A DNA stretch of 64,000 nt from an uncultured Bacilli bacterium (GCA_947629815.1 CANRFG010000001.1:27468-91467); one strand, 5' to 3'; shown: positions 2,900 through 28,007, numbered from the stretch's first letter. Translations and numbers: made by a program. The notes: generated by a model not told the origin, from the letters alone.

Positions 2900-4846
2900 C
2901 TAATTACTACTTTTTAATTCAAATAATGCATCTCTTAATTCCATTGCTCTTTCAAAGTCTAATTCTGAAGCTGCTTTTTTCATTTCTTCTTCTATTTTAA
3001 TAATTAATTGTTGTTTATCTTTTTTAGACATTTTTTCTTCTGTTTTTATTTCTTCATTATTTGATACTACATCTCTTATTTCTTTTATTATTGTTTTTGG
3101 AGTAATATTATTTTTTATGTTGTATTCGTTTTGTATTGTTCTTCTTCTTTCTGTTTCTTTTATTGCAATATCCATAGATTCACTTATAGTATCTGCATAC
3201 ATTATAACATGTCCTTCGCTATTTCTTGCAGCTCTTCCTATTGTTTGTATTAAACTCCTTGAACTTCTAAGGAATCCTTGTTTATCTGCATCCATTATCG
3301 CTATCAAGCTTACTTCTGGTATATCTAATCCTTCACGAAGTAAATTTATACCTACTAAAACATCATATTTACCTATTCTTAAATCTCTAATTATTTTTAA
3401 TCTTTCTAATGTTTTTACTTCACTATGTAAATAAGCGACTTTTATGTTTAATTTTTTTAAGTAATTTGTTAATTCTTCTGCCATTTTTATTGTAAGTGTT
3501 GTTACTAATGTTCTTTCGTTTTTTTCTATTCTTTTATATATTTGTTCTATTAAATCATCTATTTGATTTTTAGTTGGTTTTACTTCAATTGTTGGGTCTA
3601 ATAATCCTGTTGGCCTTATTATTTGTTCTACTATTCTGTTATTTGATTTTTCTATTTCATATTCATTTGGTGTCGCTGAAACATATATTACATCATCTAT
3701 TTTGCTTTCAAATTCATCAAATTTTAGTGGCCTATTATCTAATGCACTAGGTAATCTAAATCCATAATCAACAAGTACTTGTTTTCTAGCTCTATCTCCA
3801 TTAAACATTCCTCTTACTTGTGGTAGTGTTACATGTGATTCATCTATTACGAGTAAAAAGTCTTTTCCAAAGAAATCCATAAGTGTTGTTGGAGTTTCTC
3901 CTGGTTTCTTTAACGCTAAATGACGAGAATAGTTTTCAACTCCTCTACAAAATCCTGTTTCTGATAATAATTCCATATCATAATTTGTTCTTTCCATTAA
4001 TCTTTGATGTTCGATATATTTGTTTTCTTTTTTAAAGTATTCTAATCTTTCTTGTAATTCTTCATTTATATTTTTAACTGCTTGTTTTAATCTTTCTTCA
4101 CTTGTTACGAAATGACTTGCTGGAAATATTGTAATGCTTTTTTTTACGCTTGTAACTGCTCCTGTTACTGTATCAAATTCGCAAAGTCTTTCTATTTCAT
4201 CTCCAAAAAATTCTATTCTTACTCCTTTGTTGTGAAAACTTATTGGAATTATTTCTATTATATCTCCTCTTACTCTAAATGTTCCTCTTTTAAAGTCTAT
4301 ATTATTTCTTTCATATAGCATATCTATTAATTTTTCTAGTATCTGTTCTCTTTCGATAGTTTGTCCTGTAGATAGTACAAGTAAATGATTTTTATATTCT
4401 TCTATTTCACCTATTCCATATATACATGAAACTGAGGCAACTACTATAACATCTTTACTATTTAAAAGCGCTGCTGTTGCTGAATGTCTTAATTCGTCTA
4501 TTTCATCGTTTATTGATGCATCTTTATCTATATAAGTATCTGTTTTTGCAACATATGCTTCTGGTTGATAGTAATCATAGTATGAAACAAAATATTCAAC
4601 ATGGTTTTCTGGAAATAGTTCTTTTAGTTCTGAATAAAGTTGTCCTGCTAGAGTTTTATTATGAGCAAGTACTAGAGTTGGTTTATTAATTTCTTTAATT
4701 ACATTTGCGATTGTAAATGTTTTTCCTGTTCCTGTTGCGCCTAATAGTACTTGATGTTTTTTTCCTGTTTTTATTCCTTCTACTAATGCTTCTATTGCTT
4801 CTGGTTGGTCTCCACTAGGTTTGTATTTTGAAACTAATTTGAACAT
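2900..4846 (-). CDS. uvrB: Excinuclease ABC subunit B
   Basis: GATGTGKT Walker [28 protein letters not shown]-terminal UVR coil FERAMELRD. Confidence 0.98.
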
Positions 4847-4879
4847 TTTATCACCCGCTTTATAAATTTTTGTAACATT

Positions 4880-4908
4880 ATTTTATCACTTATTATAAAA
4901 CAAAACAA
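4880..4908 (-). promoter_or_regulatory. sigma-A promoter of uvrB
   Basis: TTGTTT-17 bp-TAAAAT with extended TG; same spacing kept in copies 2 and 3. Confidence 0.65.
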
Positions 4909-4931
4909 GAAAACAGATATATGTTTCCTTG
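4897..4931 (-). terminator. Intrinsic terminator overlapping the uvrB -35 box
   Basis: CAAGGAAACA-TATATC-TGTTTTCTTG then TTTTGTTTT; the single mismatch is a G-U wobble only on the minus-strand transcript. Confidence 0.65.
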
Positions 4932-4957
4932 CATTATTTTGAACTTTTTTTGCTATT

Positions 4958-5520
4958 TTATGTTAAAAATCTCTTTACCATAACATTCATATCTAAATCA
5001 TCTAATAATATAGCATTTTTATCTACTAAATTAGCTTTATGTTTAACTCTATCAATATAACTATTCATTTCATTAGTATAATCAATAATTATCTTATTTT
5101 TATCAAAATAGACATTAGATGTAATAATTGTTAATGCGTATCCTAATAACTTTGATACTGCCTTTAAATCAAAATTATTGATTAAAAGTAGAGTAGAATA
5201 AGCATTCCTTAGATCATGAAATCTAATTTTAGGTAAATTATTATCTTCTAATAGTTTTAAATAATACTTTCTGTGAAAATCTTTGCTTCTTGGTTTCCCA
5301 TAAGTAAAACAACATATATAGTTATGGTCATAAAAAGGATTAGTTTTGTCATTTATTCTTCTTTTTTTGTTTTTTTTCATTTTTGTCTTTCACTTATGAT
5401 AGTTTCAAATACCATATCAGGTATATCTAAAACTCTTTCACTATTATAAGATTTTAATTTAACCTCTTGTTTAGTAAACTTTTTTTAGGGCAATCATCTA
5501 TTGTATCATTTGTTTTTCTA
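4958..5520 (-). pseudogene. Tyrosine recombinase/integrase, C-terminal remnant
   Basis: KIRFHDLR (HxxR), KAVSKLLGY (His replaced by Tyr), TSNVY (catalytic Tyr); upstream broken frames read TKQEVKLKSYNSERVLDIPDMVFE; N-terminal half absent. Confidence 0.85.
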
Positions 5521-5525
5521 CCTAG

Positions 5526-5817
5526 TTACATTGTTAAATATAATTTTTTATTTATATAATCATCAGTACCATAATTAAAACCATTAAGGTTATCTTCTAA
5601 TTCAGATTTAGCTGTAAGCATAATTATTTTTACATCAATATTATTTTCTCTAATTATCTTTAAAATTTCAAAACCGCCAATAAAAGGTAAGATCGCATCT
5701 AAAATAATTAAGTTATAAATACCATTTAAAGCTATATCAAGCATATATTTTTCTTTTTTTACCTAGTCGAAATAATATCTCCTAAATTAAATTTATCTTC
5801 AATTATAAGTATCACAT
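5526..5817 (-). pseudogene. OmpR-family response regulator, frameshifted receiver-domain fragment
   Basis: ILIIEDKFNLG..., YNLIILDAILPFIGGFEILKIIR, IIMLTAK, YGTDDYI; broken start and no DNA-binding domain. Confidence 0.8.
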
Positions 5818-5907
5818 ATTATCACCACTATTTAGATTGTATCTTAGTTTTGTTAAGAAAACATTAAAACTAATTTGTTTTATTTCTTCATATATTGATT
5901 ATATAAA

Positions 5908-6237
5908 TTATCCTAATTTATATCCATTCGTAACTTTTTTTATCTAGGGTAATTAAAACAATCCCATCTTTACTATAGATTCCAAGAACTAATACTTCTG
6001 ATAAAAAATCATCAATTTGTTTAGGCGGAGAATTAATTACAGCTAAAACTTGTTTGCCAACTAATTCATTTATAGAATACACTTCTGTTATTTGTGCAGA
6101 AGATTTTTTAATACCAATATTATCTGCGAAATCTATTTCTAATTGATAAGCACTTTTTTAGTTTTTTCAAATACTTTAGCCTTTAGAATAGTCCCTACTT
6201 TATTATCTAATTTTATAAAATCTTCAAATTTAATCAA
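5908..6237 (-). pseudogene. csaA: CsaA/tRNA-binding OB-fold protein with two homopolymer frameshifts
   Basis: MIKFEDFIKLDNKVGTI / AYQLEIDFADNIGIKKSSAQIT...PPKQI...SEVLVLG / VTNGYKLG; -1 at the A6 run 6154-6159 and +1 at the A7 run 5935-5941. Confidence 0.85.
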
Positions 6238-6270
6238 TATCTCATCTCTTTCTTATTTAATTATGGCATA

Positions 6271-6300
6271 GAAAAAGTAGATTAATAAACTAATCTACTT
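6271..6300 (-). terminator. Intrinsic terminator closing the TIR-SPFH operon
   Basis: AAGTAGATTA-6 nt-TAATCTACTT perfect 10-bp stem running into a T tract on the minus strand. Confidence 0.75.
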
Positions 6301-6319
6301 AGTTAAATTTAAAAAGATT

Positions 6320-7519
6320 TTATTTTTTACTTTTAATGATGTTATTACGTTTCTTTATTAATTCTTTTATTTCTGAAGCTACATCTGAATCTATATTTGA
6401 AATTTTATCTTTAATTTCTTTTTCAATATCTTTTACTTCTTCAATAGAAACTGGATCAGAATAACGAATAATCTCTTTTAATTCATATTTATCTTCACTA
6501 TCAACACTATCTAGTATATTTAAAGTTTCCTCAATAAACATGGTTTGTTCTTTTACTTTATTTTCGTATTTTATACTTTGCTTTTTATTTATTTTTAAAA
6601 GAATTCCTAAAACAATATATATTAAGCTTGCAATAATTACTTGGATATAATAAATAACACTATAATTAATTGAGAAATATCCTATAACTAATAAATAAAG
6701 AATTGATACTATATATAATGCTACACTATTTGTTGTAGAATTTAAATTCTCATGTTTATCAATTAATACCATAATTAAATATAAAATGTAAGATATGCTC
6801 ATAACAATAACGATATGTGAATAAAAATAATCAACACCTTTTAAATTAATATTCGAAACACTTTCAGGAACATATATTTTAGAAATATTTTCTAAATCAA
6901 CATTAATACTAGTAACAGTGTAACCATTGATACTTACAGGAATAATAGTAGCATTATTAATACTAATACTTTTTGTTACTTCTATTTCGTCATTTTTTAA
7001 GTTATATTCTACTAAACCATTATAATTACTAAAATCTATATTAGTAGAATCATTTAACATAATAGCATCTACATTATCATCTGCTACTAAAGATTCACAG
7101 TAAGGAGATTTCATACATTCAATTTTGATATTTTCACTTTCAACATTCTTTACTTTATTTGAGATAACAATTGCCTCAATATTTTTGTTTTCAAATAAAC
7201 TATCGTTTATACTAACAACTTGATAACCGTCTATTTTTTCAGGTATAACTAGTTTTTTACTAATACCTGAATAAGAAACAATTTCTATACCGTCATCAGT
7301 TTTATTATATTCAAATTCTTCAATAGCAATATAAAATTCGTCTTCTTCACTTGAAGAAACTTTTTCTAAATTAAGAGAATGTTTATTTGCATATTTAGAA
7401 GCAAAACTATCATCTTTAGCATAAATTGTTAAATCTATTTTTGGAGCATTAAAATTGGTTATCAATAATATAGTTATTAAAATAATAAAGCCAACTAGTG
7501 AGGCAATAACTTTTTTCAT
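6320..7519 (-). CDS. Membrane protein: N-terminal anchor, two BspA/LRR-cap-like extracellular repeats, about 3 TM helices, cytoplasmic YSDP-motif coiled tail
   Basis: Repeats EYNKTDDGIEIVSYSGISKKLVIPEKIDGYQVVSI and EYNLKNDEIEVTK...IIPVSINGYTVTSI; ATG overlaps the SPFH gene stop (TAATG). Confidence 0.75.
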   Translation of the reverse strand: MKKVIASLVGFIILITILLITNFNAPKIDLTIYAKDDSFASKYANKHSLNLEKVSSSEEDEFYIAIEEFEYNKTDDGIEIVSYSGISKKLVIPEKIDGYQVVSINDSLFENKNIEAIVISNKVKNVESENIKIECMKSPYCESLVADDNVDAIMLNDSTNIDFSNYNGLVEYNLKNDEIEVTKSISINNATIIPVSINGYTVTSINVDLENISKIYVPESVSNINLKGVDYFYSHIVIVMSISYILYLIMVLIDKHENLNSTTNSVALYIVSILYLLVIGYFSINYSVIYYIQVIIASLIYIVLGILLKINKKQSIKYENKVKEQTMFIEETLNILDSVDSEDKYELKEIIRYSDPVSIEEVKDIEKEIKDKISNIDSDVASEIKELIKKRNNIIKSKK

Positions 7520-8586
7520 TATTTTACCTTCTTTCCACAACCAGAGCAAAATAATGAATCAGCCTCTAGTTTTCTTCCACAAAATCTACAGAAAGCAACA
7601 CCATTTGTTGTAGTAGCAAAAGCTCCAGTTACAGTATTGGATACTTTTTCACCAATATTACTACTAACTCCACTCATGACACCTAAACCAACACCAATAT
7701 TATTAAGTTGCCCTACAGCTTCGTTTTGAGCCCATGTTTTACTAACATCAAATTGCTTTTCTTCTTGATATGTATATCCTTCTTGCATACGTGCTTGTGC
7801 TTTAGCTTGTGAACCAATGGTTGTCTGTATTGCTTCTTTTTCTGCTTCAATTGTACCTATTTTTTTATCTATTTCGGCATTTGCTAGAACAACACCTTGC
7901 TTAAAGTATAATTCTTTAAATTGTAAATATTGCTTATCTTCCTCAGGCTTTGCAATATTTGTTACAAAGAATTTTTGTAATTTAATACCAAATTCATCAA
8001 AATCTTTTTGTAACATTTCCTTTAAAGTATCACTAATTTCATCTAATCTACTATCAATTTCAAAAATACAAATTTTTTCTTCTTTAATAATGTTTGTTAA
8101 ATAAGATTTAACTTTAACAAGAATTTGTGATGTGAAGAAATCATCGATACTTTCATTATCAAAATGATTTTTAATTCCTACTAATTTGGTAACAATTTTT
8201 CTAGAATCGTCAACTTGAAAACGAACTTCACCACATGCTCCTACTTTAATTGGAAAATTATAAATAGGCTCTAAAAATTCCAATTTAGATGGTGTTCCCC
8301 ATCTAAAGTTTTGAACACTTTTATCGATAAAATAAACATCGCAAGTAAAAGCACTTCTTCCACCAGTTGGAATATTAATAATCGACCTTAAAAGGGGAAT
8401 ATTGCCTGTCTCTAAAGTGTATTTGCCAGGTCCAAATAAATCTAAAGCTTTTCCCATTGAATAAAATAAAGCTTCTTGTGATTCGTCAACAATTAATTTT
8501 GAACCAGTATTAAAATTTCTTCTAGGATATCTAGATACTACAAATTTATCATCCTTAGTTTTTTTTATTACTTCAAAAATTGCCAT
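7519..8586 (-). CDS. SPFH/Band-7 (YdjI-like) protein with C-terminal zinc ribbon
   Basis: GSKLIVDESQEALF...LFGPGKYTLETGNIP, WGTP, coiled region, CRFCG...FCSGCG; RBS AGGAGG. Confidence 0.88.
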   Translation of the reverse strand: MAIFEVIKKTKDDKFVVSRYPRRNFNTGSKLIVDESQEALFYSMGKALDLFGPGKYTLETGNIPLLRSIINIPTGGRSAFTCDVYFIDKSVQNFRWGTPSKLEFLEPIYNFPIKVGACGEVRFQVDDSRKIVTKLVGIKNHFDNESIDDFFTSQILVKVKSYLTNIIKEEKICIFEIDSRLDEISDTLKEMLQKDFDEFGIKLQKFFVTNIAKPEEDKQYLQFKELYFKQGVVLANAEIDKKIGTIEAEKEAIQTTIGSQAKAQARMQEGYTYQEEKQFDVSKTWAQNEAVGQLNNIGVGLGVMSGVSSNIGEKVSNTVTGAFATTTNGVAFCRFCGRKLEADSLFCSGCGKKVK

Positions 8587-8595
8587 AATTACCTC

Positions 8596-10620
8596 CTAAT
8601 TTGCACTTAAATATTTTAAATAAACATCGCTTGCTGCACTGGCACAAACCCACCCTTCGATACCATTTGAAGTTGTTACTTTATACCAATTTCTTTTTTC
8701 CACAACAACTTTATAAGAACCAAAATTATCTGAAAAAATATCATCATTCCATCTTGTTTCAGTTATTTCTTCTATATAAGTATCATTAATGGTGAAAATA
8801 TCGCCTTCTTTTGCGACTGCGAGTGAAGAAGAATTTTTACTATGGTCTTTTCTGATATTTAAAGTTTCGGTTATTACCTCAACTTGATTAACAGATGTAT
8901 CACGACTATTTGAATAATGAAATTTACTAGAACATTCTTCATCATCTTCACCACATATTATTTCATAATCATACCCATTATAGTGATTATAATTTTTCTC
9001 TCCCAAATATAAGTATCCTTCAATACCTTTATTTGTTTTAATTTTTGCAAAGCCATAAAATGATAAATCATCGCTTTGTTTTAATTCATCAAAATCTAAA
9101 ATATCATAATAGTCTCCACCTCTTACAGAAGCTAAAATTTTACTATCTAAATTATCACTAGCATATATTTTTTTATGCCCTAAAACATATATTTGATTTA
9201 CTGAACTATCTTTTCCATTACTTTGACGATAAGGTAAACGATTCCAAATTTTTAATGCAATTAAAGCATATATAATAACTATTATAATTAATAAAATGAT
9301 TGGAACTCTTTTGGTAAATCGATTATCTTTGTTTTTTTCTTTTGCTTTATAATGTTCACGTAAATAATTATTTTTTATAATTTGTTTATCTCTTTCTTCA
9401 GCATTCATAATTGATTTGGATGACATATTTAAATTCCATTTAGGAACAATAAAATATGATACCAAAAGAACAGCAATATCAAGACCATAATCAAGAATAA
9501 AATAGCTAATTTTACCAGGAACCAGATAACTATTCAAATATAAAGCAAATTTTATAGTTAAAGCAAAGATAAGAAATGGTAAAAACTTTTTAGCTATTTT
9601 GTGTGTTTTCCTATGAATAAATAAGCAAGCGACATAACTAGCTAAAAAAAGAATATATAAAAGTGAAACTATGAATAATTCTTTATTATAAGAGAATGAG
9701 ACACGCTCAAAAGTCAATAATGAGACTGGATTACATACAGCAATAACTATCAATTTAAAAAATGAATAAAAGAAGATTGTTACAATACATAATATATAGT
9801 ACCAAACAGGTAAATTTTCTTTAACGATATTTACTTCATATTGACCATTTCCAACACTTCTAGATTCTTCTAAAGCTTTTTGTACTTTGGCAACCGTTTC
9901 AGCATCAATATCATCAACTTCGACATTTTTATATTCATCAACAATTTTTTTTACCCCACGTGTCAAATCTTGGATAGCTCCAACTTTATCCATCGATTGA
10001 GCTTGTAACATAGCAAATTCTTCTGGTAACTTATAAGCATCAATCTTGCTATAAACAGGAATCAAAGTTTTGCCTTTGTCAGTTTCCATCATTTCTAGAT
10101 AACGTCTCCACTCATTTTTTACCCATACAGCATTAAAGTTATCGATATCAGTACCAACGACAAGCATAACTTTAGAACTCTTTAAAGCTGAGTATATATA
10201 TGGTTCATATTCAACACCTAATTTATTTTCTAAAGTTATACGAGCAAAAAAGACTTTTAAGCCAACTGAGGTAAGCTTATCATATATATCTTGAGCAATT
10301 ACTGAATCATGTGTTCTCTCACCATTATTATCAGTTTCCTTATAACAGATAAATACATCGTATGGTTTTTCTTTAGAAGAAATTTTTAAGATACCTTTTT
10401 GTATATCATCTATTTGTTTAGCTTCAGCTTCATATAACGCTAAGGCATCACCATATGAATGTTTTTTTATAATTTTATAATCACTATCAGTAAAAATAGA
10501 ATAATCTCTAGTTCTATGACAAGTTGGTACTTTTTTCTTTGTTTTTGGATCATCGACATATTCAACACCATACTTACAAAGAATCAAACCCCAATGAGCT
10601 TCTACTTGTTTATTGTCCAT
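8596..10620 (-). CDS. TIR-domain membrane protein (TIR, about 5 TM, two SH3b-like domains); ORF downstream of a premature stop
   Basis: YDVFICYKE...KVFFARITLE...WVKNEWRRY (catalytic Glu kept); five hydrophobic segments; SH3b-like repeats ending KIKTNKGIEGYL and YKVTTSNGIEGWV. Confidence 0.88.
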   Translation of the reverse strand: MDNKQVEAHWGLILCKYGVEYVDDPKTKKKVPTCHRTRDYSIFTDSDYKIIKKHSYGDALALYEAEAKQIDDIQKGILKISSKEKPYDVFICYKETDNNGERTHDSVIAQDIYDKLTSVGLKVFFARITLENKLGVEYEPYIYSALKSSKVMLVVGTDIDNFNAVWVKNEWRRYLEMMETDKGKTLIPVYSKIDAYKLPEEFAMLQAQSMDKVGAIQDLTRGVKKIVDEYKNVEVDDIDAETVAKVQKALEESRSVGNGQYEVNIVKENLPVWYYILCIVTIFFYSFFKLIVIAVCNPVSLLTFERVSFSYNKELFIVSLLYILFLASYVACLFIHRKTHKIAKKFLPFLIFALTIKFALYLNSYLVPGKISYFILDYGLDIAVLLVSYFIVPKWNLNMSSKSIMNAEERDKQIIKNNYLREHYKAKEKNKDNRFTKRVPIILLIIIVIIYALIALKIWNRLPYRQSNGKDSSVNQIYVLGHKKIYASDNLDSKILASVRGGDYYDILDFDELKQSDDLSFYGFAKIKTNKGIEGYLYLGEKNYNHYNGYDYEIICGEDDEECSSKFHYSNSRDTSVNQVEVITETLNIRKDHSKNSSSLAVAKEGDIFTINDTYIEEITETRWNDDIFSDNFGSYKVVVEKRNWYKVTTSNGIEGWVCASAASDVYLKYLSAN

Positions 10621-10824
10621 TGATAAAATATTTTCGTAAACTTCTTTAGCTTTATCAAAATCATTATTAATTCTTAAAAAATTAGCTCTATTGTATAGAT
10701 TTACTATTTTCTCATTTTATAAATTTGGAAGGGTCATAACACTTTTACAATACAAACATCTACCAGTATTTGTACCATTAATTGGTTCTATATCTCCCCC
10801 ACACATTTTACACTTAAACAACAT
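10621..10824 (-). pseudogene. Detached N-terminus (Zn ribbon plus TPR start) of the TIR gene, cut by an in-frame TAA at 10717-10719
   Basis: RBS GGAGTG then MLFKCKMCGGDIEPINGTNTGRCLYCKSVMTLPNL*NEKIVNLYNRANFLRINNDFDKAKEVYENIL, in frame with 8596-10620. Confidence 0.88.
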
Positions 10825-10919
10825 ACTATCACTCCAATATTGATATTTTTATCTTACCGTTAAATCATTCATTTGATATGACTAATAAACTATGAAATTA
10901 TACAAATTTATCTAACTAT

Positions 10920-10948
10920 ATTATATCATTCATAGTAAATTTTGTCAG
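10920..10948 (-). promoter_or_regulatory. sigma-A promoter of the TIR operon
   Basis: CTGACA-17 bp-TATAAT with extended TG. Confidence 0.7.
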
Positions 10949-11282
10949 CATATTTCTAAACTTAAATCTTTTACTTTACAAACCTATTATACAATAATTT
11001 AAATAAGAAAATTTATTTACTTATATTTTCTTCATGATTTTTCCACAAAGTATAAATTACATTTATTAACTATTTAATATTAATTATATCATTACTATCA
11101 TATTCTAAGTTTACTAAATTTATTTTTGTTATTGGCAGTACTCGTAAGGTGATTTCAAATTCAGATTAATCAGTAAAGGAAATATTAAATTTACTATAAC
11201 AATTAATAACAATTTTTCAAGTTGCAATACTATCAATAATGTATAATATTTCATTATCGATAGATAAGTGTATTTAATTGCT

Positions 11283-11378
11283 TTAATGTTTTTTTCCTGT
11301 TTTTATTCCTTCTACTAATGCTTCTATTGCTTCTGGTTGGTCTCCACTAGGTTTGTATTTTGAAACTAATTTGAACAT
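11283..11378 (-). pseudogene. uvrB: uvrB N-terminal fragment, 31 codons
   Basis: [31 protein letters not shown], identical to the start of uvrB. Confidence 0.93.
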
Positions 11379-11472
11379 TTTATCACCCGCTTTATAAATT
11401 TTTGTAACATTATTTTATCACTTATCATAAAACAAAACAAGAAAACAGCTATATGTTTCCTTGCATTATTTT
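11286..11472 (-). repeat. uvrB 5' block, copy 2
   Basis: 187 bp matching 4754-4940 with 2 mismatches seen by eye. Confidence 0.95.
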
Positions 11473-11519
11473 TTTTTAAAATTTTATATTAAGCTACTCA
11501 TATAAATATTTTTTTTTAA

Positions 11520-12527
11520 TTATTGATTATTTTCTAATACTTTTTCTACTTCATTTATTAATTGTTCTTTATTAGGTATGTAATAAGTATAAGTTGAAGC
11601 AAAAATATTATTTTCTAAACCACCTAAGGCAAATTCTAAAGCAACTTGGTCTTTTTCAGCGCATAGTATGATACCAATAGGTTTTCCATCGTCTTCTGAA
11701 TTGATTACTTTTTCATAATAATTTAAATACATGTTCATTTGGCCTAAATTTTCTGCTTTTAGTTTATTCATTTTTAAATCTATTAAGACATATGATTTTA
11801 AAAATTTATTATAAAATACCATATCAACATAATAATCAATATTATTGAGTGTGATTCTTTGTTGAGAGCCAACAAACATAAAACCTTTACCAAGTTCTAG
11901 TAAAAAATCTTCTATATGTCTAATTAATTTATATTCTAAATCTTTTTCTAAAAGAGGTTTAGGTTCTTTTATTCCTAAAAACTCAAAGACATATGGTTGT
12001 TTAACAATATCACTAGGTTTACTCAAGATTTGACCTTTTTTGGATAATTCTAAAACTTTTTCTTTATTTACATTTCCATCAGAAAGTAAAAGTCTTTCAA
12101 ATAAAGATGTATCTAATTGTCTTTGTAATTCTCTAACAGACCAATTGGAATTAATACATTCTTTTTCGTAAAAATCTCTTTTATTTTTATCTTTTATAGT
12201 AATTAATTCTACATAATGTGACCAACTTAAATTTTCGTTTATCACATTGTAATCTGGATAAATATTATAAAACCATCTCATATAAGTTAAATTAGTGTAA
12301 GAATATCCTTTTCCTAGCAGTTTAGTTAACTCATTAGATAATTCTTTTAAAACCTCTTTACCATATTCTAATCTGTTATTATCTTCATTTTCGTGTTTTA
12401 CAATAATTTTTCCTATGTTCCAATAAACATAAGTGATAGATTTATTTACTTCTTTCGCCAAATTATTTTTGGCTTCGGTTACTAACTTGCTAATTTCCAA
12501 AGCCATAGTATTATTTTCTTCCAACAT
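11520..12527 (-). CDS. YhcG/DUF1016-family PD-(D/E)XK nuclease-domain protein
   Basis: YWNIGKII, LSWSHYVELI, WSVRELQRQ, KQPYVFEFLG, LLELGKGFMFVGSQ, DMVFYN, IDLK, GQMNMYLNYY; RBS GAAAGGA before MLEENN. Confidence 0.92.
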   Translation of the reverse strand: MLEENNTMALEISKLVTEAKNNLAKEVNKSITYVYWNIGKIIVKHENEDNNRLEYGKEVLKELSNELTKLLGKGYSYTNLTYMRWFYNIYPDYNVINENLSWSHYVELITIKDKNKRDFYEKECINSNWSVRELQRQLDTSLFERLLLSDGNVNKEKVLELSKKGQILSKPSDIVKQPYVFEFLGIKEPKPLLEKDLEYKLIRHIEDFLLELGKGFMFVGSQQRITLNNIDYYVDMVFYNKFLKSYVLIDLKMNKLKAENLGQMNMYLNYYEKVINSEDDGKPIGIILCAEKDQVALEFALGGLENNIFASTYTYYIPNKEQLINEVEKVLENNQ

Positions 12528-12551
12528 TATAAATTTCCTTTCTTTGAATTC

Positions 12552-12567
12552 TTCAGACGCGTCTGAA
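12552..12567. promoter_or_regulatory. Perfect 16-bp GC-rich palindrome in the yhcG-like 5' leader
   Basis: TTCAGACGCGTCTGAA just upstream of the RBS. Confidence 0.45.
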
Positions 12568-12770
12568 AAATCATGAAATATTATCAATAGGATACATATT
12601 TACTACTAATAAAATTATATCAAATTTATCTTTAAAAATCATTCATCTTTATATATTAAAAATATATTTTTTTAACAAATATAATAGGACTTGAATTACG
12701 CCTACAAATTTACTTTGTCCATCTAGTTATTGGTAGTGTTATTTCATTCATTTTTTGGATTTAACAACAC

Positions 12771-13079
12771 TTAAAAAAAAATAAACAACAGGGATTTTAA
12801 ACAATCGTTATAATAACTTACAAAATATTCAACATGATTTTCTGGAAATAGTTCTTTTAGTTCTGAATAAAGTTGTCCTGCTAAAGTTTTATTGTGAGCA
12901 AGTACTAGAGTTGGTTTATTAATTTCTTTAATTACATTTGCGATTGTAAATGTTTTTCCTGTTCCTGTTGCGCCTAATAGTACTTGATGTTTTTTCCCTG
13001 TTTTTATTCCTTCTACTAATGCTTCTATTGCTTCTGGTTGGTTTGCACTAGGTTTGTATTTTGAAACTAATTTGAACAT
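12771..13079 (-). pseudogene. uvrB: uvrB N-terminal fragment (about 90 codons plus unrelated tail)
   Basis: Matches UvrB up to VEYFVSYY then diverges ([12 protein letters not shown]). Confidence 0.93.
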
Positions 13080-13174
13080 TTTATCACCAGCTTTATAAAT
13101 TTTGTAACATTATTTTACAATTTATCATAAAACAAAACAAGAAAACAACTATATGTTTCCTTGTATTATTTTGA
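12820..13174 (-). repeat. uvrB 5' block, copy 3
   Basis: About 355 bp matching 4587-4942 with about 15 differences counted by eye. Confidence 0.95.
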
Positions 13175-13296
13175 TAATTTTTAACGATTTTATTATAAAA
13201 ACTTTTTACCATAAATTTCGTGTTAAATCATTCATGTAGTTAGCAAAAAACTATTACCTGCCTACAACATAATTATTTTAGACATATTTACGCTTT

Positions 13297-13791
13297 CTAT
13301 TTTTTGCTTAATTTAATTATTGAATAAGTGTTTGTAATTGCAGTCATTAGATCAAAAATTGTAGAAGAATATGACTTAATTGTTAAATCATATATGAACC
13401 ATAATATCATAGTAAATATTATTAAACTCTTAAATTTTATTACATTTTTAGTATTCATTAACCATAAATAAGTAATTGTACTTATAAGTGGTAATATACC
13501 AATCAATCCTAAATTATTAAATTTAATTGATAAAAATGTAGCTAGCAAAGTTATTACTATTTTTTCTTTTAATCCTAATCTATCTTTATAGCATAAAATA
13601 TTTCTGACACAACTGAGTGCGTTAATTATAGCACCTACAAATCCGCCAAGGACTACATTGCTTACAACTGATAGTCCTATCTGTATTGTCTGAACATATA
13701 AAATTTTTTTCTTTTGCTTTATTGTACCCGAATACACCATAAATAAAGAGGCTATGAGTGCAATTATATTTCCAATTATAATACTAGTCAT
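13297..13791 (-). CDS. YgjV-like inner membrane protein
   Basis: Multi-TM; GNIIALIA...QTIQ...VLGGFVGA...RNIL...WFIYD pattern. Confidence 0.65.
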   Translation of the reverse strand: MTSIIIGNIIALIASLFMVYSGTIKQKKKILYVQTIQIGLSVVSNVVLGGFVGAIINALSCVRNILCYKDRLGLKEKIVITLLATFLSIKFNNLGLIGILPLISTITYLWLMNTKNVIKFKSLIIFTMILWFIYDLTIKSYSSTIFDLMTAITNTYSIIKLSKK

Positions 13792-13984
13792 TACATCACC
13801 TTAATAATTAAGTTAAAAAAGCCATTGTGGATTTTATTTCCATTTAATGATCTAACTTTTAACGCTTGATTTTATATTTTTATTTTCAAAATGTTTGTTA
13901 TTATCATATAAATATAGACTAAGTTTATAAATTACATTAAACCAATTCTAATTTTTTAAAAATTTTATATTGTTAATATTCAAA

Positions 13985-14064
13985 ATATTTTATCAACAAC
14001 CTTGTAAATTTTATAACATTACCTTATCATTTATATAAAACAAGAAAACCCATATGTTTTCTTG
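13985..14064 (-). repeat. Degenerate uvrB promoter/terminator block, copy 4 (ATG decayed to ATA); hairpin likely terminates the vWA gene
   Basis: CAAGAAAAC-ATATGG-GTTTTCTTGTTTT...TGATAAGGTAATGTTA...TGATAAAATA aligns with copy 1. Confidence 0.7.
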
Positions 14065-14122
14065 TTACTTAAATGTTGATATAATTCTCTATTATGTAAT
14101 AATCATAAAGTATTCTCAAAAA

Positions 14123-25158: not shown

Positions 25159-25207
25159 TGTATCACGTCCTAAGATAATAAAAAGCCACTGATTGTCAGT
25201 GGTTGTA

Positions 25208-25330
25208 TTAATGAGCTAATACTTTACGCCCTTTTCTTCTTCTTGAATTAATCATATTTGTTTTAACACGCGCTAAAAAACCCATTTTTTTACTTCTTTT
25301 TCTATTATTTGGTTGAAATGTTCTTTTCAT
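25208..25330 (-). CDS. rpmH: 50S ribosomal protein L34 (40 aa)
   Basis: Manual translation [40 protein letters not shown]. Confidence 0.95.
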
Positions 25331-25461
25331 TATTCCACCTCCTGAATTCATATTTTTTCGTTTGCTTTAATAATTATATAGATTAAAACTATTTTTGTCA
25401 ACAAATTTTAAAAAAAATAAATACTAATTTTTTTTAAACAAAATATTATATTTTTATCATA

Positions 25462-26286
25462 TTATAAGTTATCTAATTTTTTAATAATTTTTTCTTTGTA
25501 TTTTTTCTTCTTTAGGTAATAATTGTCTACATTTTTTTCAATTTTTTCCCAATTTTCTATATTTTTATAATATTCTAATATTTCATCAGGATTTTCTTTT
25601 ATCATTCTTAAAAAGAATTGTGCTCTTAATATAGCAAATCTATATTTCAAATGGTTTTGCTTATAATATTCTATTTCATCACCCATATAATATGCTTTAA
25701 ATTCTGAAAAATCAGTTTTAATTTCATCTCTTATTGGTGTTATTTCAAGTTCCTTTTTTATTAAAGATGGTAATTTTACAATAGTTGGATTTATTAAGCT
25801 TTTTCCTTTTAAGATTGAATTTAAATCAGAAGTTGCTGTATTTTCGTCTTCAACTATAGTTTTAACCATGCCTGTTTCCAATCCTATATATTCATGCAAC
25901 ATTGTTTGATTAATCAATGAATTTGAATTATATTTAATATTATTATTGATATATTTTATATCTTCTATGTCAGTTATATTTATTAGTCTTTTAGTTGTTC
26001 CTATTTTTTGAGAATCTGTTGATGTTAACAAGTATAACCCTGCATCAATATAAATATTTTCATCATATACTCCATGATGAATCAAAGCACCTAACATATC
26101 ATCTTCTTCAAGAATTAAAGGCATAATAAATTCACTTTCATTATGACATTCAGAATAAAGTAATTTTATATAGTTTAAAACTTGCTTATCTTCATAAAAT
26201 TCTTTTAATTTTTTATTTTCTTCTTGACTTATTTTTCGAAATGCTTCAAAATGTTTTTTTAACATTTTTAAAAATTCTATTTGCAT
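25462..26286 (-). CDS. Hypothetical protein between rpmH and dnaA
   Basis: 274-aa ORF with GGAGG RBS; no recognised motif. Confidence 0.8.
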   Translation of the reverse strand: MQIEFLKMLKKHFEAFRKISQEENKKLKEFYEDKQVLNYIKLLYSECHNESEFIMPLILEEDDMLGALIHHGVYDENIYIDAGLYLLTSTDSQKIGTTKRLINITDIEDIKYINNNIKYNSNSLINQTMLHEYIGLETGMVKTIVEDENTATSDLNSILKGKSLINPTIVKLPSLIKKELEITPIRDEIKTDFSEFKAYYMGDEIEYYKQNHLKYRFAILRAQFFLRMIKENPDEILEYYKNIENWEKIEKNVDNYYLKKKKYKEKIIKKLDNL

Positions 26287-26391
26287 AATAAAACCTCCAT
26301 AATTTTTTTTATTATATCATATTCCTTTATTTGTTAAAATAAAAAATATTTCTTTTAATGATAAATTGGCATATCTTTATATTTAAATATT

Positions 26392-26564
26392 TTTTCCACA
26401 TTATTTTTTCTTTAAATTAAAACAATTTTATACTTTTCCACATAAATTGTGGATATTTTTTTTAAATTTATTAACATTGTATATTTCTTTTCCACATAAA
26501 TTGTGGAAATCGTATTTAGATATTTAAAAATTTAGAATTTTATGTGGCTTTTTAATGTGGAAAA
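26392..26564. promoter_or_regulatory. oriC part 1: DnaA-box cluster upstream of dnaA
   Basis: TTTTCCACA at 26392, 26434, 26488; reverse boxes at 26448, 26502, 26556; 20-bp unit TTTTCCACATAAATTGTGGA occurs twice. Confidence 0.88.
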
Positions 26565-26651
26565 AATTTTTTTTGTTTTTTTTCCTCATATTTATTTAAT
26601 TTTTAATAAATTTAATGTAAAATATAGTTAATTACTTCAGAGGTGTTGAAT

Positions 26652-28007
26652 ATGGATATAGATAATATATGGTCTTTATTTTTAGAAAAAATGAAACAAC
26701 AAATTAATCCAATGCATTATGACACTTGGTTTGCTGATACAAAATTAATTTCACTTGATGAGAATTGTGCGAAAGTATTAGTTCCTATGTCAGTTCATAA
26801 AAAACATTTAAAAGAAAACTATAATGACTTAATAGTAGATTTATTTACAGAAATAACAGGAACAAACTTTAATTTTGAATATGTATTAGAAGAAGAAATT
26901 AAAAACAATGTTACTATAGATACTAATGAGATAGGCGTTCCTTCAGTAACATTTGAATCTAATTTAGACCCAAAATACACATTTGATAATTTTGTTGTAG
27001 GTCAAAGTGATAAACATAAATTTGCTAAAGCTTCTTCCTTAGCTGTTGCAGAAAAACCAGGTTATATGTATAATCCACTATTCATATATGGAAAAAGTGG
27101 ACTTGGTAAAACTCATCTTATGCATGCAATAGGAAATTATATAACAAAAAATTCAAATATGAAGGTTTTATATGTAACAAGTGAAAAATTTGTCGAAGAT
27201 TTTATTAATATATATAGGAAAAATAAAAATGAAAATAATTTTGAAGAAGTTGATTCTTTTAAGAAAAAATATAGAGATATTGATGTTCTTATGATAGATG
27301 ATATACAATATCTAGAAATTGCAAACAAAACACAACAAGAATTTTTCAACACTTTTAATGAATTACATTGTAATAACAAACAAATAATTATATCTTCTGA
27401 TAGAACGCCTGATGATTTAAATAAATTAGAAGAGCGACTTAGAACTAGATTTAATTGGGGATTAACTATTGATATAGAACCACCTGATTTTGATTTAAGA
27501 ATGGATATAATTAATAAAAAAATAGAGGTTAATAATATATCTTCTGTTTTTCCACAAGATGTAAAAGAATATATAGCAAGTAATTGTACTTCAGATGTAA
27601 GAAAATTAGAAGGTGCGATTATTAGAGTTTCTGCTTATGCTGTTATGATGAATGGTTCTGAAATAACTTTAGATTTAGCTATAGAAGCATTGAAAGATTT
27701 TTTTGTTAAAAGTATTATTTCTAAAAATAAAATAGAACAAGTACAACAAGTTATCGCACAACATTATAATATTAGCGTTGAAGACTTAAAAAGTAAGAAA
27801 AAAACTTCTAATATTGCTATACCAAGACAAATAGCAATGTATATTTGTAGAAACATATTTGATGAATCACTTTCTAAAATAGGAATGGAATTTGGTGGAA
27901 AAGACCATACAACTGTTATGCATTCAGTTAATAAAATTAAAAATGAAATTGCAAACGATGAAGTTTTCAAAAATGAAATAAATAAATTAATAAGTAAGAT
28001 TAAATAG
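26652..28007 (+). CDS. dnaA: Chromosomal replication initiator DnaA
   Basis: YTFDNFVVG, NPLFIYGKSGLGKTHL, LMIDDIQ, RQIAMY, FGGKDHTTVMH. Confidence 0.98.
   Translation: MDIDNIWSLFLEKMKQQINPMHYDTWFADTKLISLDENCAKVLVPMSVHKKHLKENYNDLIVDLFTEITGTNFNFEYVLEEEIKNNVTIDTNEIGVPSVTFESNLDPKYTFDNFVVGQSDKHKFAKASSLAVAEKPGYMYNPLFIYGKSGLGKTHLMHAIGNYITKNSNMKVLYVTSEKFVEDFINIYRKNKNENNFEEVDSFKKKYRDIDVLMIDDIQYLEIANKTQQEFFNTFNELHCNNKQIIISSDRTPDDLNKLEERLRTRFNWGLTIDIEPPDFDLRMDIINKKIEVNNISSVFPQDVKEYIASNCTSDVRKLEGAIIRVSAYAVMMNGSEITLDLAIEALKDFFVKSIISKNKIEQVQQVIAQHYNISVEDLKSKKKTSNIAIPRQIAMYICRNIFDESLSKIGMEFGGKDHTTVMHSVNKIKNEIANDEVFKNEINKLISKIK

Follow-up and report, generated by a model that had tools for sequence, protein, structure and literature searches.

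A probable fossil array of integrative elements at the 5' end of uvrB in an uncultured Bacilli bacterium

Introduction

In the accretion scheme for integrative elements, one element integrates site-specifically at the end of a conserved gene, decays to a remnant that has attachment (att) sites on both sides but no integrase, and is followed by a further element at the gene-proximal att site, so that a tandem array of mostly decayed elements builds up (PMC5704250). ICESt1 and ICESt3 at fda in Streptococcus thermophilus show such tandem accretion of integrative and conjugative elements (ICEs), integrative and mobilizable elements (IMEs) and cis-mobilizable elements (CIMEs), and the same pathway of integration, decay and accretion probably shaped the locus analyzed here, a row of repeats and genes upstream of uvrB in an uncultured Bacilli bacterium. 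The locus lies in a 64,000-nucleotide (nt) stretch of DNA (GCA_947629815.1 CANRFG010000001.1:27468-91467), which as a whole is called the window, and positions are counted from its first letter. Unlike the known accretion systems, the elements at uvrB target the 5' end of the gene, not a 3' end or a tRNA gene. Unlike ICESt-type elements, they supply a promoter and 90 codons, including the Walker A motif, and they carry two recombinase genes instead of one.

A preliminary description of the window had read this region as an integron-like cassette array partitioned by four copies of the terminator, promoter and 5' end of uvrB, with uvrB as a repeatedly used integration target. Based on the analysis below, we consider the region to be a fossil tandem array of site-specific integrative elements targeting uvrB, with a probability of about 0.75. 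Loci used for comparison carry L numbers.

Results

Four copies of one block lie upstream of uvrB

A repeat search and a four-way alignment found four copies of one block on the minus strand between 4577 and 14066, all in the orientation of uvrB (Table 1). The block consists of a hairpin terminator, a TTGTTT-17-TAAAAT promoter and uvrB 5' codons. Self-matches among the copies have E-values from 1e-9 to 1e-175; at 1e-94 to 1e-175 the similarities are far beyond chance, and the four copies first described are real. Copy 1 leads into the intact gene, with its hairpin at 4905-4932, the -35 hexamer TTGTTT at 4903-4908, the -10 hexamer TAAAAT at 4880-4885, a short leader and the uvrB ATG at 4846.

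The other three copies are displaced and increasingly different. Copy 2 is 98.4% identical over 190 nt, and its 2 mismatches fall in the promoter part; its codons are identical to those of uvrB and then give way to TAA and unrelated DNA, a non-canonical end. The codons of copy 3 are 97.7% identical over 260 nt. Its 90 codons had been recognized before, but its extent is larger than the 12820-13174 given then. It retains a remnant of about 45 nt (~13193-13236) from the 3' end of the recombinase gene int2, described below. A possible remnant of the int2 tail is also seen at the upstream end of copy 2. Copy 4 is about 74% identical over 90 nt (E 1e-9); its ATG has become ATA (13986-13988) and no uvrB coding sequence is left. 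Block divergence thus rises with distance from uvrB, as had been noticed.

The four hairpins have predicted folding energies of -11.5 to -16.7 kcal/mol and z-scores of -4.2 to -7.1, and no shuffled sequence equals them. Three of them are the sole terminator-like sites on the minus strand between 4500 and 14500; the terminator scan finds none between the blocks, and all genes of the array are co-oriented with uvrB. No additional left junctions or arms were found in a search of 14-30 kb. Just past codon 31 of copy 2, at the non-canonical junction, there is an imperfect inverted repeat, TATCTATCGATAATG ... CATTATTGATAGTA, within 11200-11286.

A pair of recombinase genes is linked to uvrB

Between copy 1 and the first cargo lies the relic of a tyrosine recombinase gene, int2, in three frames. 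Its N-terminal half (the first 220 residues) is gone, and so is int1, the gene that precedes int2 in relatives. Using the intact int2 of L036 as a tblastn query, the relic was recovered in pieces at 5597-5481, 5490-5383 and 5362-4964; from its end to the uvrB ATG is 111 nt.

The relic, joined across its frameshift, was used as a query for homologues, and every homologue whose context was looked up lies immediately upstream of uvrB on the same strand. A profile of these homologues yielded 64 loci in species-representative genomes, and context look-ups were added for the linkage count. The uvrB ATG follows 218-1417 bp after the int2 stop codon in 56 of the 60 informative loci. The hosts include Blautia, Dorea, Acetatifactor, Extibacter muris DSM 28560 and metagenome-assembled Bacilli and "Tenericutes". 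When loci were instead chosen by uvrB itself, int2 was upstream in only 3 of the 56 that had enough upstream DNA, which indicates that the linkage is specific. Intact integrases adjoining uvrB, which the preliminary description had suggested looking for, thus occur in relatives at the position of the relic.

In at least 35 loci, int1 (~400 aa) precedes int2 (~430 aa), and the gene ends often overlap or abut (for example L036 8419-10927). Both products have a Phage_integrase catalytic domain, and int2 has a SAM-like domain too. The elements that carry the pair are diverse. The one in L036 encodes a VirB4 of the CD1110 family, MazF and a sigma factor, and is hence ICE-like; ParA/ParB are found in L007, L058 and L084, together with RepA_N, a SpaA-type adhesin and a sortase in L007 and a large surface protein in L058; and L076 has phage-type ERF and SSB. 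The live relatives are ICE-like, phage-like or small islands. In phage and plasmid collections the best matches to the recombinases are generic integrases with no more than 31% identity. The window itself has no conjugation module (VirB4, coupling protein, relaxase) in 4958-14066 by Pfam, so its intervals are remnants and not ICEs.

In several elements that otherwise look intact, int2 is split into two open reading frames (ORFs) by a mid-gene frameshift, as in the window relic (L003 3997-5285, L072 9253-10561, L076 9493-10543). These splits could be decay or homopolymer sequencing errors.

The block resembles the arm of an element

Relatives share a conserved layout at the 3' end of int2: its stop codon is followed by a hairpin, then by TTGTTT-17-TAAAAT, which has an upstream TG, then by some 190 nt, a ribosome-binding site and uvrB. 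The stretch of about 190 nt contains GTTATTTAG repeats, TTTGTGGCCGAnATTCGTGTCC and two GGACACGAATTT repeats. The window blocks align to the int2 tail, the hairpin and the promoter of this arm. Compared with the int2-occupied relative L096, the block is 76% identical over 129 nt (E 1.6e-18), while the upstream regions of the unoccupied close relatives L088-L090 gave no match. Because it matches the one and not the others, we regard the block as the arm of an element and not as the native control region of uvrB. In this comparison it corresponds to the right-hand attachment arm, made of the last int2 codons, the int2 terminator, an element-borne promoter and replacement uvrB codons 1-90. The "uvrB terminator-promoter" of the preliminary description is therefore misnamed.

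A generic promoter scan is uninformative in DNA of 25% GC (83 sites found, 85.5 expected), so the block promoter was called from its conservation across relatives; its hexamers are kept throughout the element family. By eye, no Firmicutes-type LexA box (GAAC-N4-GTTC) was seen in either the blocks or the arms. The GGACACGAATTT and GTTATTTAG repeats more likely serve the recombinase as arm sites. Rfam gave zero matches between 2500 and 17000 at E ≤ 1, which excludes a riboswitch upstream of the YgjV gene. A phage origin of the block was also considered and rejected: blastn against phage records matched only uvrB on host DNA. IMG/VR, searched with a DNA pattern and an integrase profile, gave no match and no free form of the element among viral contigs.

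Displaced uvrB fragments end at codon 90

The displaced fragments in the window, L054, L057, L058, L062, L064 (two copies), L066 and L069 end after ...EYFVSYY, at codon 90, and continue into related arm DNA. At least nine independent fragments share this junction. Copies 1 and 3 of the window agree as far as ...TATTTTGT and then use different codons for V-S-Y-Y, which would place the strand exchange at about that point.

Past its codon 90, copy 3 runs into a degenerate left-hand element arm (P' arm). The left junctions of L054, L058, L080 and L084 align with copy 3 and this arm to ~12650 at 67-76% identity, but align with copy 1 only to codon 90. Copy 3 plus the P' arm is thus a canonical hybrid junction, and it encodes an ORF of 102 aa at 12771-13079, made of UvrB residues 1-90 and 12 arm-encoded residues. 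The same length is found exactly in 88 of the 120 best database homologues of this ORF, with the same join and a tail that varies in sequence and not in length; one such homologue of 102 aa is present on 144 contigs. The constant tail fits a conserved spacing of arm motifs, because the stop codon lies inside a TTTTAG motif.

With copy 3 at one side and copy 1 at the other, the target segment is duplicated at both element ends in the window. Codons 1-90 of the intact uvrB gene, and what lies upstream of them, are element-derived. Junctions had been expected at codons of about 31 or 90. Codon 90 recurs from genome to genome; a second att position at codon 31 was rejected, since no other genome has a fragment ending there, and copies 2 and 4 are non-canonical truncations.

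The site has been used repeatedly in other genomes

Tandem arrays are also present in other genomes. In L064, two displaced fragments flank an integrase relic. L058 has int2, then a fragment, then a ParA/ParB element, and another contig of the same assembled genome, L045, has int2 beside uvrB. A common gut species (L080-L087, seven places) shows a partial fragment, a YhcG fragment, a 102-aa fragment, a decayed island of 7 kb, an int2 relic and uvrB, in this order. Compared with the rest of L080-L087, L084 has an extra ParA/ParB element exactly after codon ~92, with flanks that are 99.7% identical. This is a strain-level presence/absence polymorphism at the uvrB site, in a species other than that of the window, and it is the kind of variable content among related genomes that the preliminary description had suggested looking for. 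Decayed accreted elements are also found in L054, L062, L064 and L080. The uvrB 5' target site is widespread in gut Firmicutes, and the earlier view of the uvrB 5' end as a repeatedly used integration target is well supported by the dedicated integrase family, the fixed codon-90 junction, and the tandem arrays and strain polymorphism elsewhere.

Cargo between the blocks and genomic surroundings

Annotation with Pfam and PADLOC agrees with the cargo first described. The interval next to uvrB holds relics of a response-regulator gene and a csaA gene and then a trio of genes, whose first member, the TIR gene, has an in-frame TAA at codon 36 (10719-10717) as seen by alignment to P0029. The next interval has a YhcG nuclease and the one after it a YgjV protein; neither has a recombinase gene.

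Table 1. Features of the uvrB region of the window. Positions are in window coordinates; P, right-hand arm; P', left-hand arm.
Feature	Position	Strand	Basis
Intact uvrB, 648 aa	2900..4846	minus	ORF, Pfam families from L001 gene table, tblastn
Probable core/crossover, uvrB codons 84-90 (GAATATTTTGTTTCATACTAT, E-Y-F-V-S-Y-Y)	4577..4597	minus	shared end of displaced fragments
Copy 1, shortened right-hand arm (P arm) before intact uvrB	4847..4957	minus	alignment, hairpin folding
int2 relic, tyrosine recombinase residues ~221-432, three frames	4958..5597	minus	Pfam Phage_integrase, translations, tblastn
Response-regulator fragment	5526..5744	minus	Pfam Response_reg positions 41-101 of 111
Disrupted CsaA/tRNA_bind gene	~5918..6260	minus	Pfam tRNA_bind positions 41-90 of 96
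409-aa protein without family	7549-6320	minus	no Pfam match
SPFH/Band-7 and zinc ribbon protein	8586-7519	minus	Pfam
TIR-SH3 gene, 742 codons	10824-8596	minus	Pfam
Promoter-like site CTGACA-17-TATAAT with TG, upstream of TIR operon	10920..10948	minus	consensus match only; best of the region
Copy 2, uvrB codons 1-31, ATG 11378, hairpin 11437-11464 and promoter	~11286..11510	minus	alignment
YhcG/DUF1016 PD-(D/E)XK nuclease, PADLOC candidate PDC-S02	11520..12587	minus	Pfam, PADLOC
Left-hand element arm (P' arm) past copy 3, degenerate; AAATTTGTAGGCGTAATTCAAGTCC at ~12687-12711	12650..12809	minus	alignment
Copy 3, uvrB codons 1-90, ATG 13079, hairpin 13137-13164 and promoter	~12810..13236	minus	alignment
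Imp-YgjV family membrane protein, 164 aa	13297..13791	minus	Pfam
Copy 4, hairpin 14041-14064 and promoter-like stretch, same shortened architecture	~13960..14066	minus	alignment, folding

The trio (window 6320-10824) encodes a zinc-ribbon-TIR-SH3 protein of ~745 aa, an SPFH/Band-7 protein with a zinc ribbon of ~355 aa and an unannotated protein of ~400 aa. It is conserved elsewhere without a link to uvrB or an integrase (L078 6157-10670, L079 3313-7839), and the idea that it is cargo tied to uvrB elements was rejected for this reason. The TIR protein has more than 7800 matches, while PADLOC gives only a weak PDC-S66 hit; in L079 the trio adjoins AbiEi/AbiEii. The trio may be an undescribed defense system.

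YhcG/DUF1016 genes or fragments adjoin displaced uvrB 5' fragments in three unrelated genomes: the window, L080-L087 and L069. In L080 the order is uvrB fragment 1-44, YhcG fragment (9377-10309 in L080-L087), uvrB fragment 1-90. In L069, copies of YhcG (6773-8090 and 11103-11884) flank a divergent int1-int2 pair.

Upstream of copy 4 a VWA protein is encoded, followed by the genes of the chromosomal origin cluster, parB, rsmG, mnmG, mnmE, jag, yidC, rnpA and dnaA. The replication origin region is at ~25160-28007, where dnaA (26643-28007, plus strand) faces the other seven genes on the minus strand. Cumulative GC skew reaches its minimum near 26000, and the uvrB array is 12-22 kb away from the origin region.

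Discussion

How the array may have formed

In the reading we favor, the right end of a live element would consist of int1-int2 and then the attachment arm, with the terminator, the promoter, the arm-type motifs, the ribosome-binding site and uvrB codons 1-90. Recombination would take place in the core at uvrB codons 84-90 and bring the promoter and 5' segment of the element in front of the uvrB body. The 5' segment that stood there before would be displaced to the far (left) end of the element, where it reads 12 codons into the left arm and gives the 102-aa ORF. Since new arrivals insert beside the uvrB body, older junctions and cargo accumulate upstream. The window genome may have seen at least two or three integration events, followed by deletions and probably gene conversion. 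Through later changes, int1 and most of int2 would have disappeared, every block would have lost its arm-site segment, and copy 4 its coding part and copy 2 its codons 32-90. The present content would be cargo (YgjV, YhcG and the TIR-SPFH trio with its broken TIR gene) interleaved with scars of terminator, promoter and uvrB 5' segment. The array is almost certainly immobile now.

Several observations weigh against this reading. Copy 3 is the sole canonical left junction in the window, since copy 2 breaks off at codon 31 and copy 4 is noncoding; that integrases made these two is something we infer. From the -35 hexamer to the ATG there are 55-69 nt in all four blocks, compared with 204-245 nt in live elements, and the arm motifs of live elements were found in none of the four (about 150 nt have been lost). 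A shared derived loss of this kind suggests that the copies were homogenized, were copied from one another, or came from one lineage with a short arm. It weakens the simple view of four independent arrivals of intact elements. It also means that the blocks are probably dead as sites, and the missing arm-site segment argues against att sites that are still proficient in recombination. There is no intact integrase, excision factor or conjugation gene in the window. The only other contig with the array, L001, is identical to the window at 100% over 14.8 kb and has a coverage of 3.7x; given this identity, it is no independent support for the assembly. In the search for other strains of the species, an exact-protein look-up gave only this contig, and a block-specific DNA pattern matched nothing in metagenome contigs.

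Alternative explanations

It is possible, though unlikely, that there was one canonical integration, from copy 3 to copy 1, and that everything else came from homology-driven rearrangement, with the blocks acting as portable homology and not as integrase sites. Copies 2 and 4 would then be products of unequal crossing-over, of gene conversion, or of DNA with the short block that inserted by Campbell-type homologous recombination. The derived short leader common to all four blocks is what one would expect from this, as are the near identity of copy 2 to copy 1, its end point found in no other genome, the lack of uvrB coding sequence and left arm in copy 4, and the occurrence of the trio elsewhere with no tie to uvrB or an integrase. 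However, the int2 tail remnant upstream of copy 3, and possibly of copy 2, implies that separate integrase genes were once there, and decay of accreted elements, which is present in the four loci named above, yields the same picture.

Far less credible is a working integron-like platform, in which each block would terminate the upstream cassette, restart transcription from a promoter of the uvrB type and serve as a point of cassette exchange. All cargo is co-directional with uvrB, the block hairpins are the sole terminator-like sites on the strand and the promoter hexamers are conserved across the family, all of which speaks for such a platform. But the recombinase is a frameshifted relic whose arm sites are missing, a stop codon interrupts the TIR gene, whose operon has a promoter-like site of its own, and no cassette variation was found for the window species. 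Intact int1 and int2 score 36 bits on NCBIfam integron-integrase models with cut-offs of 265-435, and attC sites are absent: the window intervals are bounded by direct repeats of ~100-430 nt, and all of the strong hairpins are terminators with T-runs. The remaining alternative, that variant uvrB upstream regions from coexisting strains were joined in tandem by the assembler, is the least probable of all. The low coverage of the second contig and its complete identity to the window leave some room for it. Nevertheless, cargo and junctions are unique to each interval, no two copies have the same length and end point (31 codons, 90 codons, none), copy 3 has a family-typical left arm that is absent from uvrB itself, and similar arrays occur in unrelated assemblies.

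Regulation and frameshifts

A more speculative idea, which we think improbable, is that uvrB was chosen for its regulation. The resident promoter would read through the 102-aa ORF into co-oriented element genes, stranded blocks would drive captured defense-type genes and provide homology for cassette swapping, and the +1 frameshift sites of one lineage would be an off-switch for UvrB or programmed frameshifting. If so, the element would be wired to the host's uvrB expression signal, and decayed arrays would form an integrase-independent, integron-like expression platform.

The frameshift sites are an observation of their own. Six species-level assembled genomes have an extra C before the Walker A Gly codon in the element-supplied uvrB segment (TCT/TCA-C-GGA-AAA-AC), at L035 4135-4470, L048 4302-4640, L053 11248-11580, L057 1623-1930, L062 8406 and 11245, and L064 8121 and 11046. 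Four of the six have another inserted C, ahead of the Gly of L-A-G-Q. With each insertion an in-frame CGG arises, which these loci hardly use otherwise (0-2 per about 3000 codons), and the remaining uvrB is open to codon 645. A near-identical segment in L076 does not have the insertion. Judging from the sequences, these segments would be either element-carried inactivation of uvrB or conserved +1 frameshift sites at a rare codon.

What the array adds

Returning to the accretion reading, gut Firmicutes, among them the cultured Extibacter muris DSM 28560, have an att site that appears to be new, uvrB codons 84-90, together with the module of two recombinases by which it is used. The very common 102-aa "UvrB fragment" ORF of genome annotations is explained as a left-junction scar. 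Carriers owe the promoter of uvrB and the first 90 residues of its product, ATP-binding motif included, to a mobile element. The fixed junction is a simple marker for locating uvrB elements and leftover islands. The string "uvr" is absent from the review of accretion (PMC5704250) and from the Streptococcus ICE survey. In full-text searches, no paper came up in which uvrB is named as an attachment site, in agreement with the preliminary description; subscription literature was outside that search. The att site is thus apparently undescribed, while the accretion pathway itself is known.

Comparison with known systems

An accretion of CIMEs is recognized by at least three tandem att-type repeats that delimit integrase-less segments, and the window has four such blocks. 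As expected of integrative elements, there is a recombinase beside the target, a duplicated target with a fixed junction, and linkage of the recombinase family to the target with most targets unoccupied.

Adjacent tyrosine recombinase genes are known from Tn554, which encodes TnpA and TnpB and inserts at att554 near radC. The "Tyr duo" elements MTnPi1-3 of Prevotella intermedia have two adjacent, distantly related tyrosine recombinases at one element end, as cited in a review (PMC5704250). Both cases have the two-recombinase arrangement of int1-int2, with other hosts and other targets, and the likeness drawn here is one of gene arrangement.

SpyCIM1 in mutL and the Listeria phage in comK interrupt a gene on insertion and restore it on excision. 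In these switches, as here, the element sits in the 5' part of a DNA-repair-related gene, but uvrB is rebuilt on integration instead, with a possible exception in the frameshifted 5' segments of L035 and related loci. Integron-like elements of Pseudomonas that target rulB have several adjacent recombinases, a variable cargo side and one fixed position in rulB (PMC4542609). They resemble the uvrB elements in layout, with a fixed insertion point in a DNA-damage-tolerance gene and multiple recombinases, and differ in having three recombinases, in occurring in Proteobacteria and in leaving a 3-bp repeat inside rulB, where uvrB has a long 5' segment and promoter replaced.

Integrons likewise present a row of unrelated, co-oriented genes, with a recurring sequence between them and an integrase gene alongside. 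The integron-like mechanism first proposed for the window fails on this comparison, as the uvrB array has no IntI, attC or attI and probably no single Pc promoter. Its repeats are att-site scars of 100-430 bp; by sequence match, conserved promoter-like hexamers are present in every block, and another strong site precedes the TIR operon. The apparently organized cassette system of the window is most simply an ordinary product of decay.

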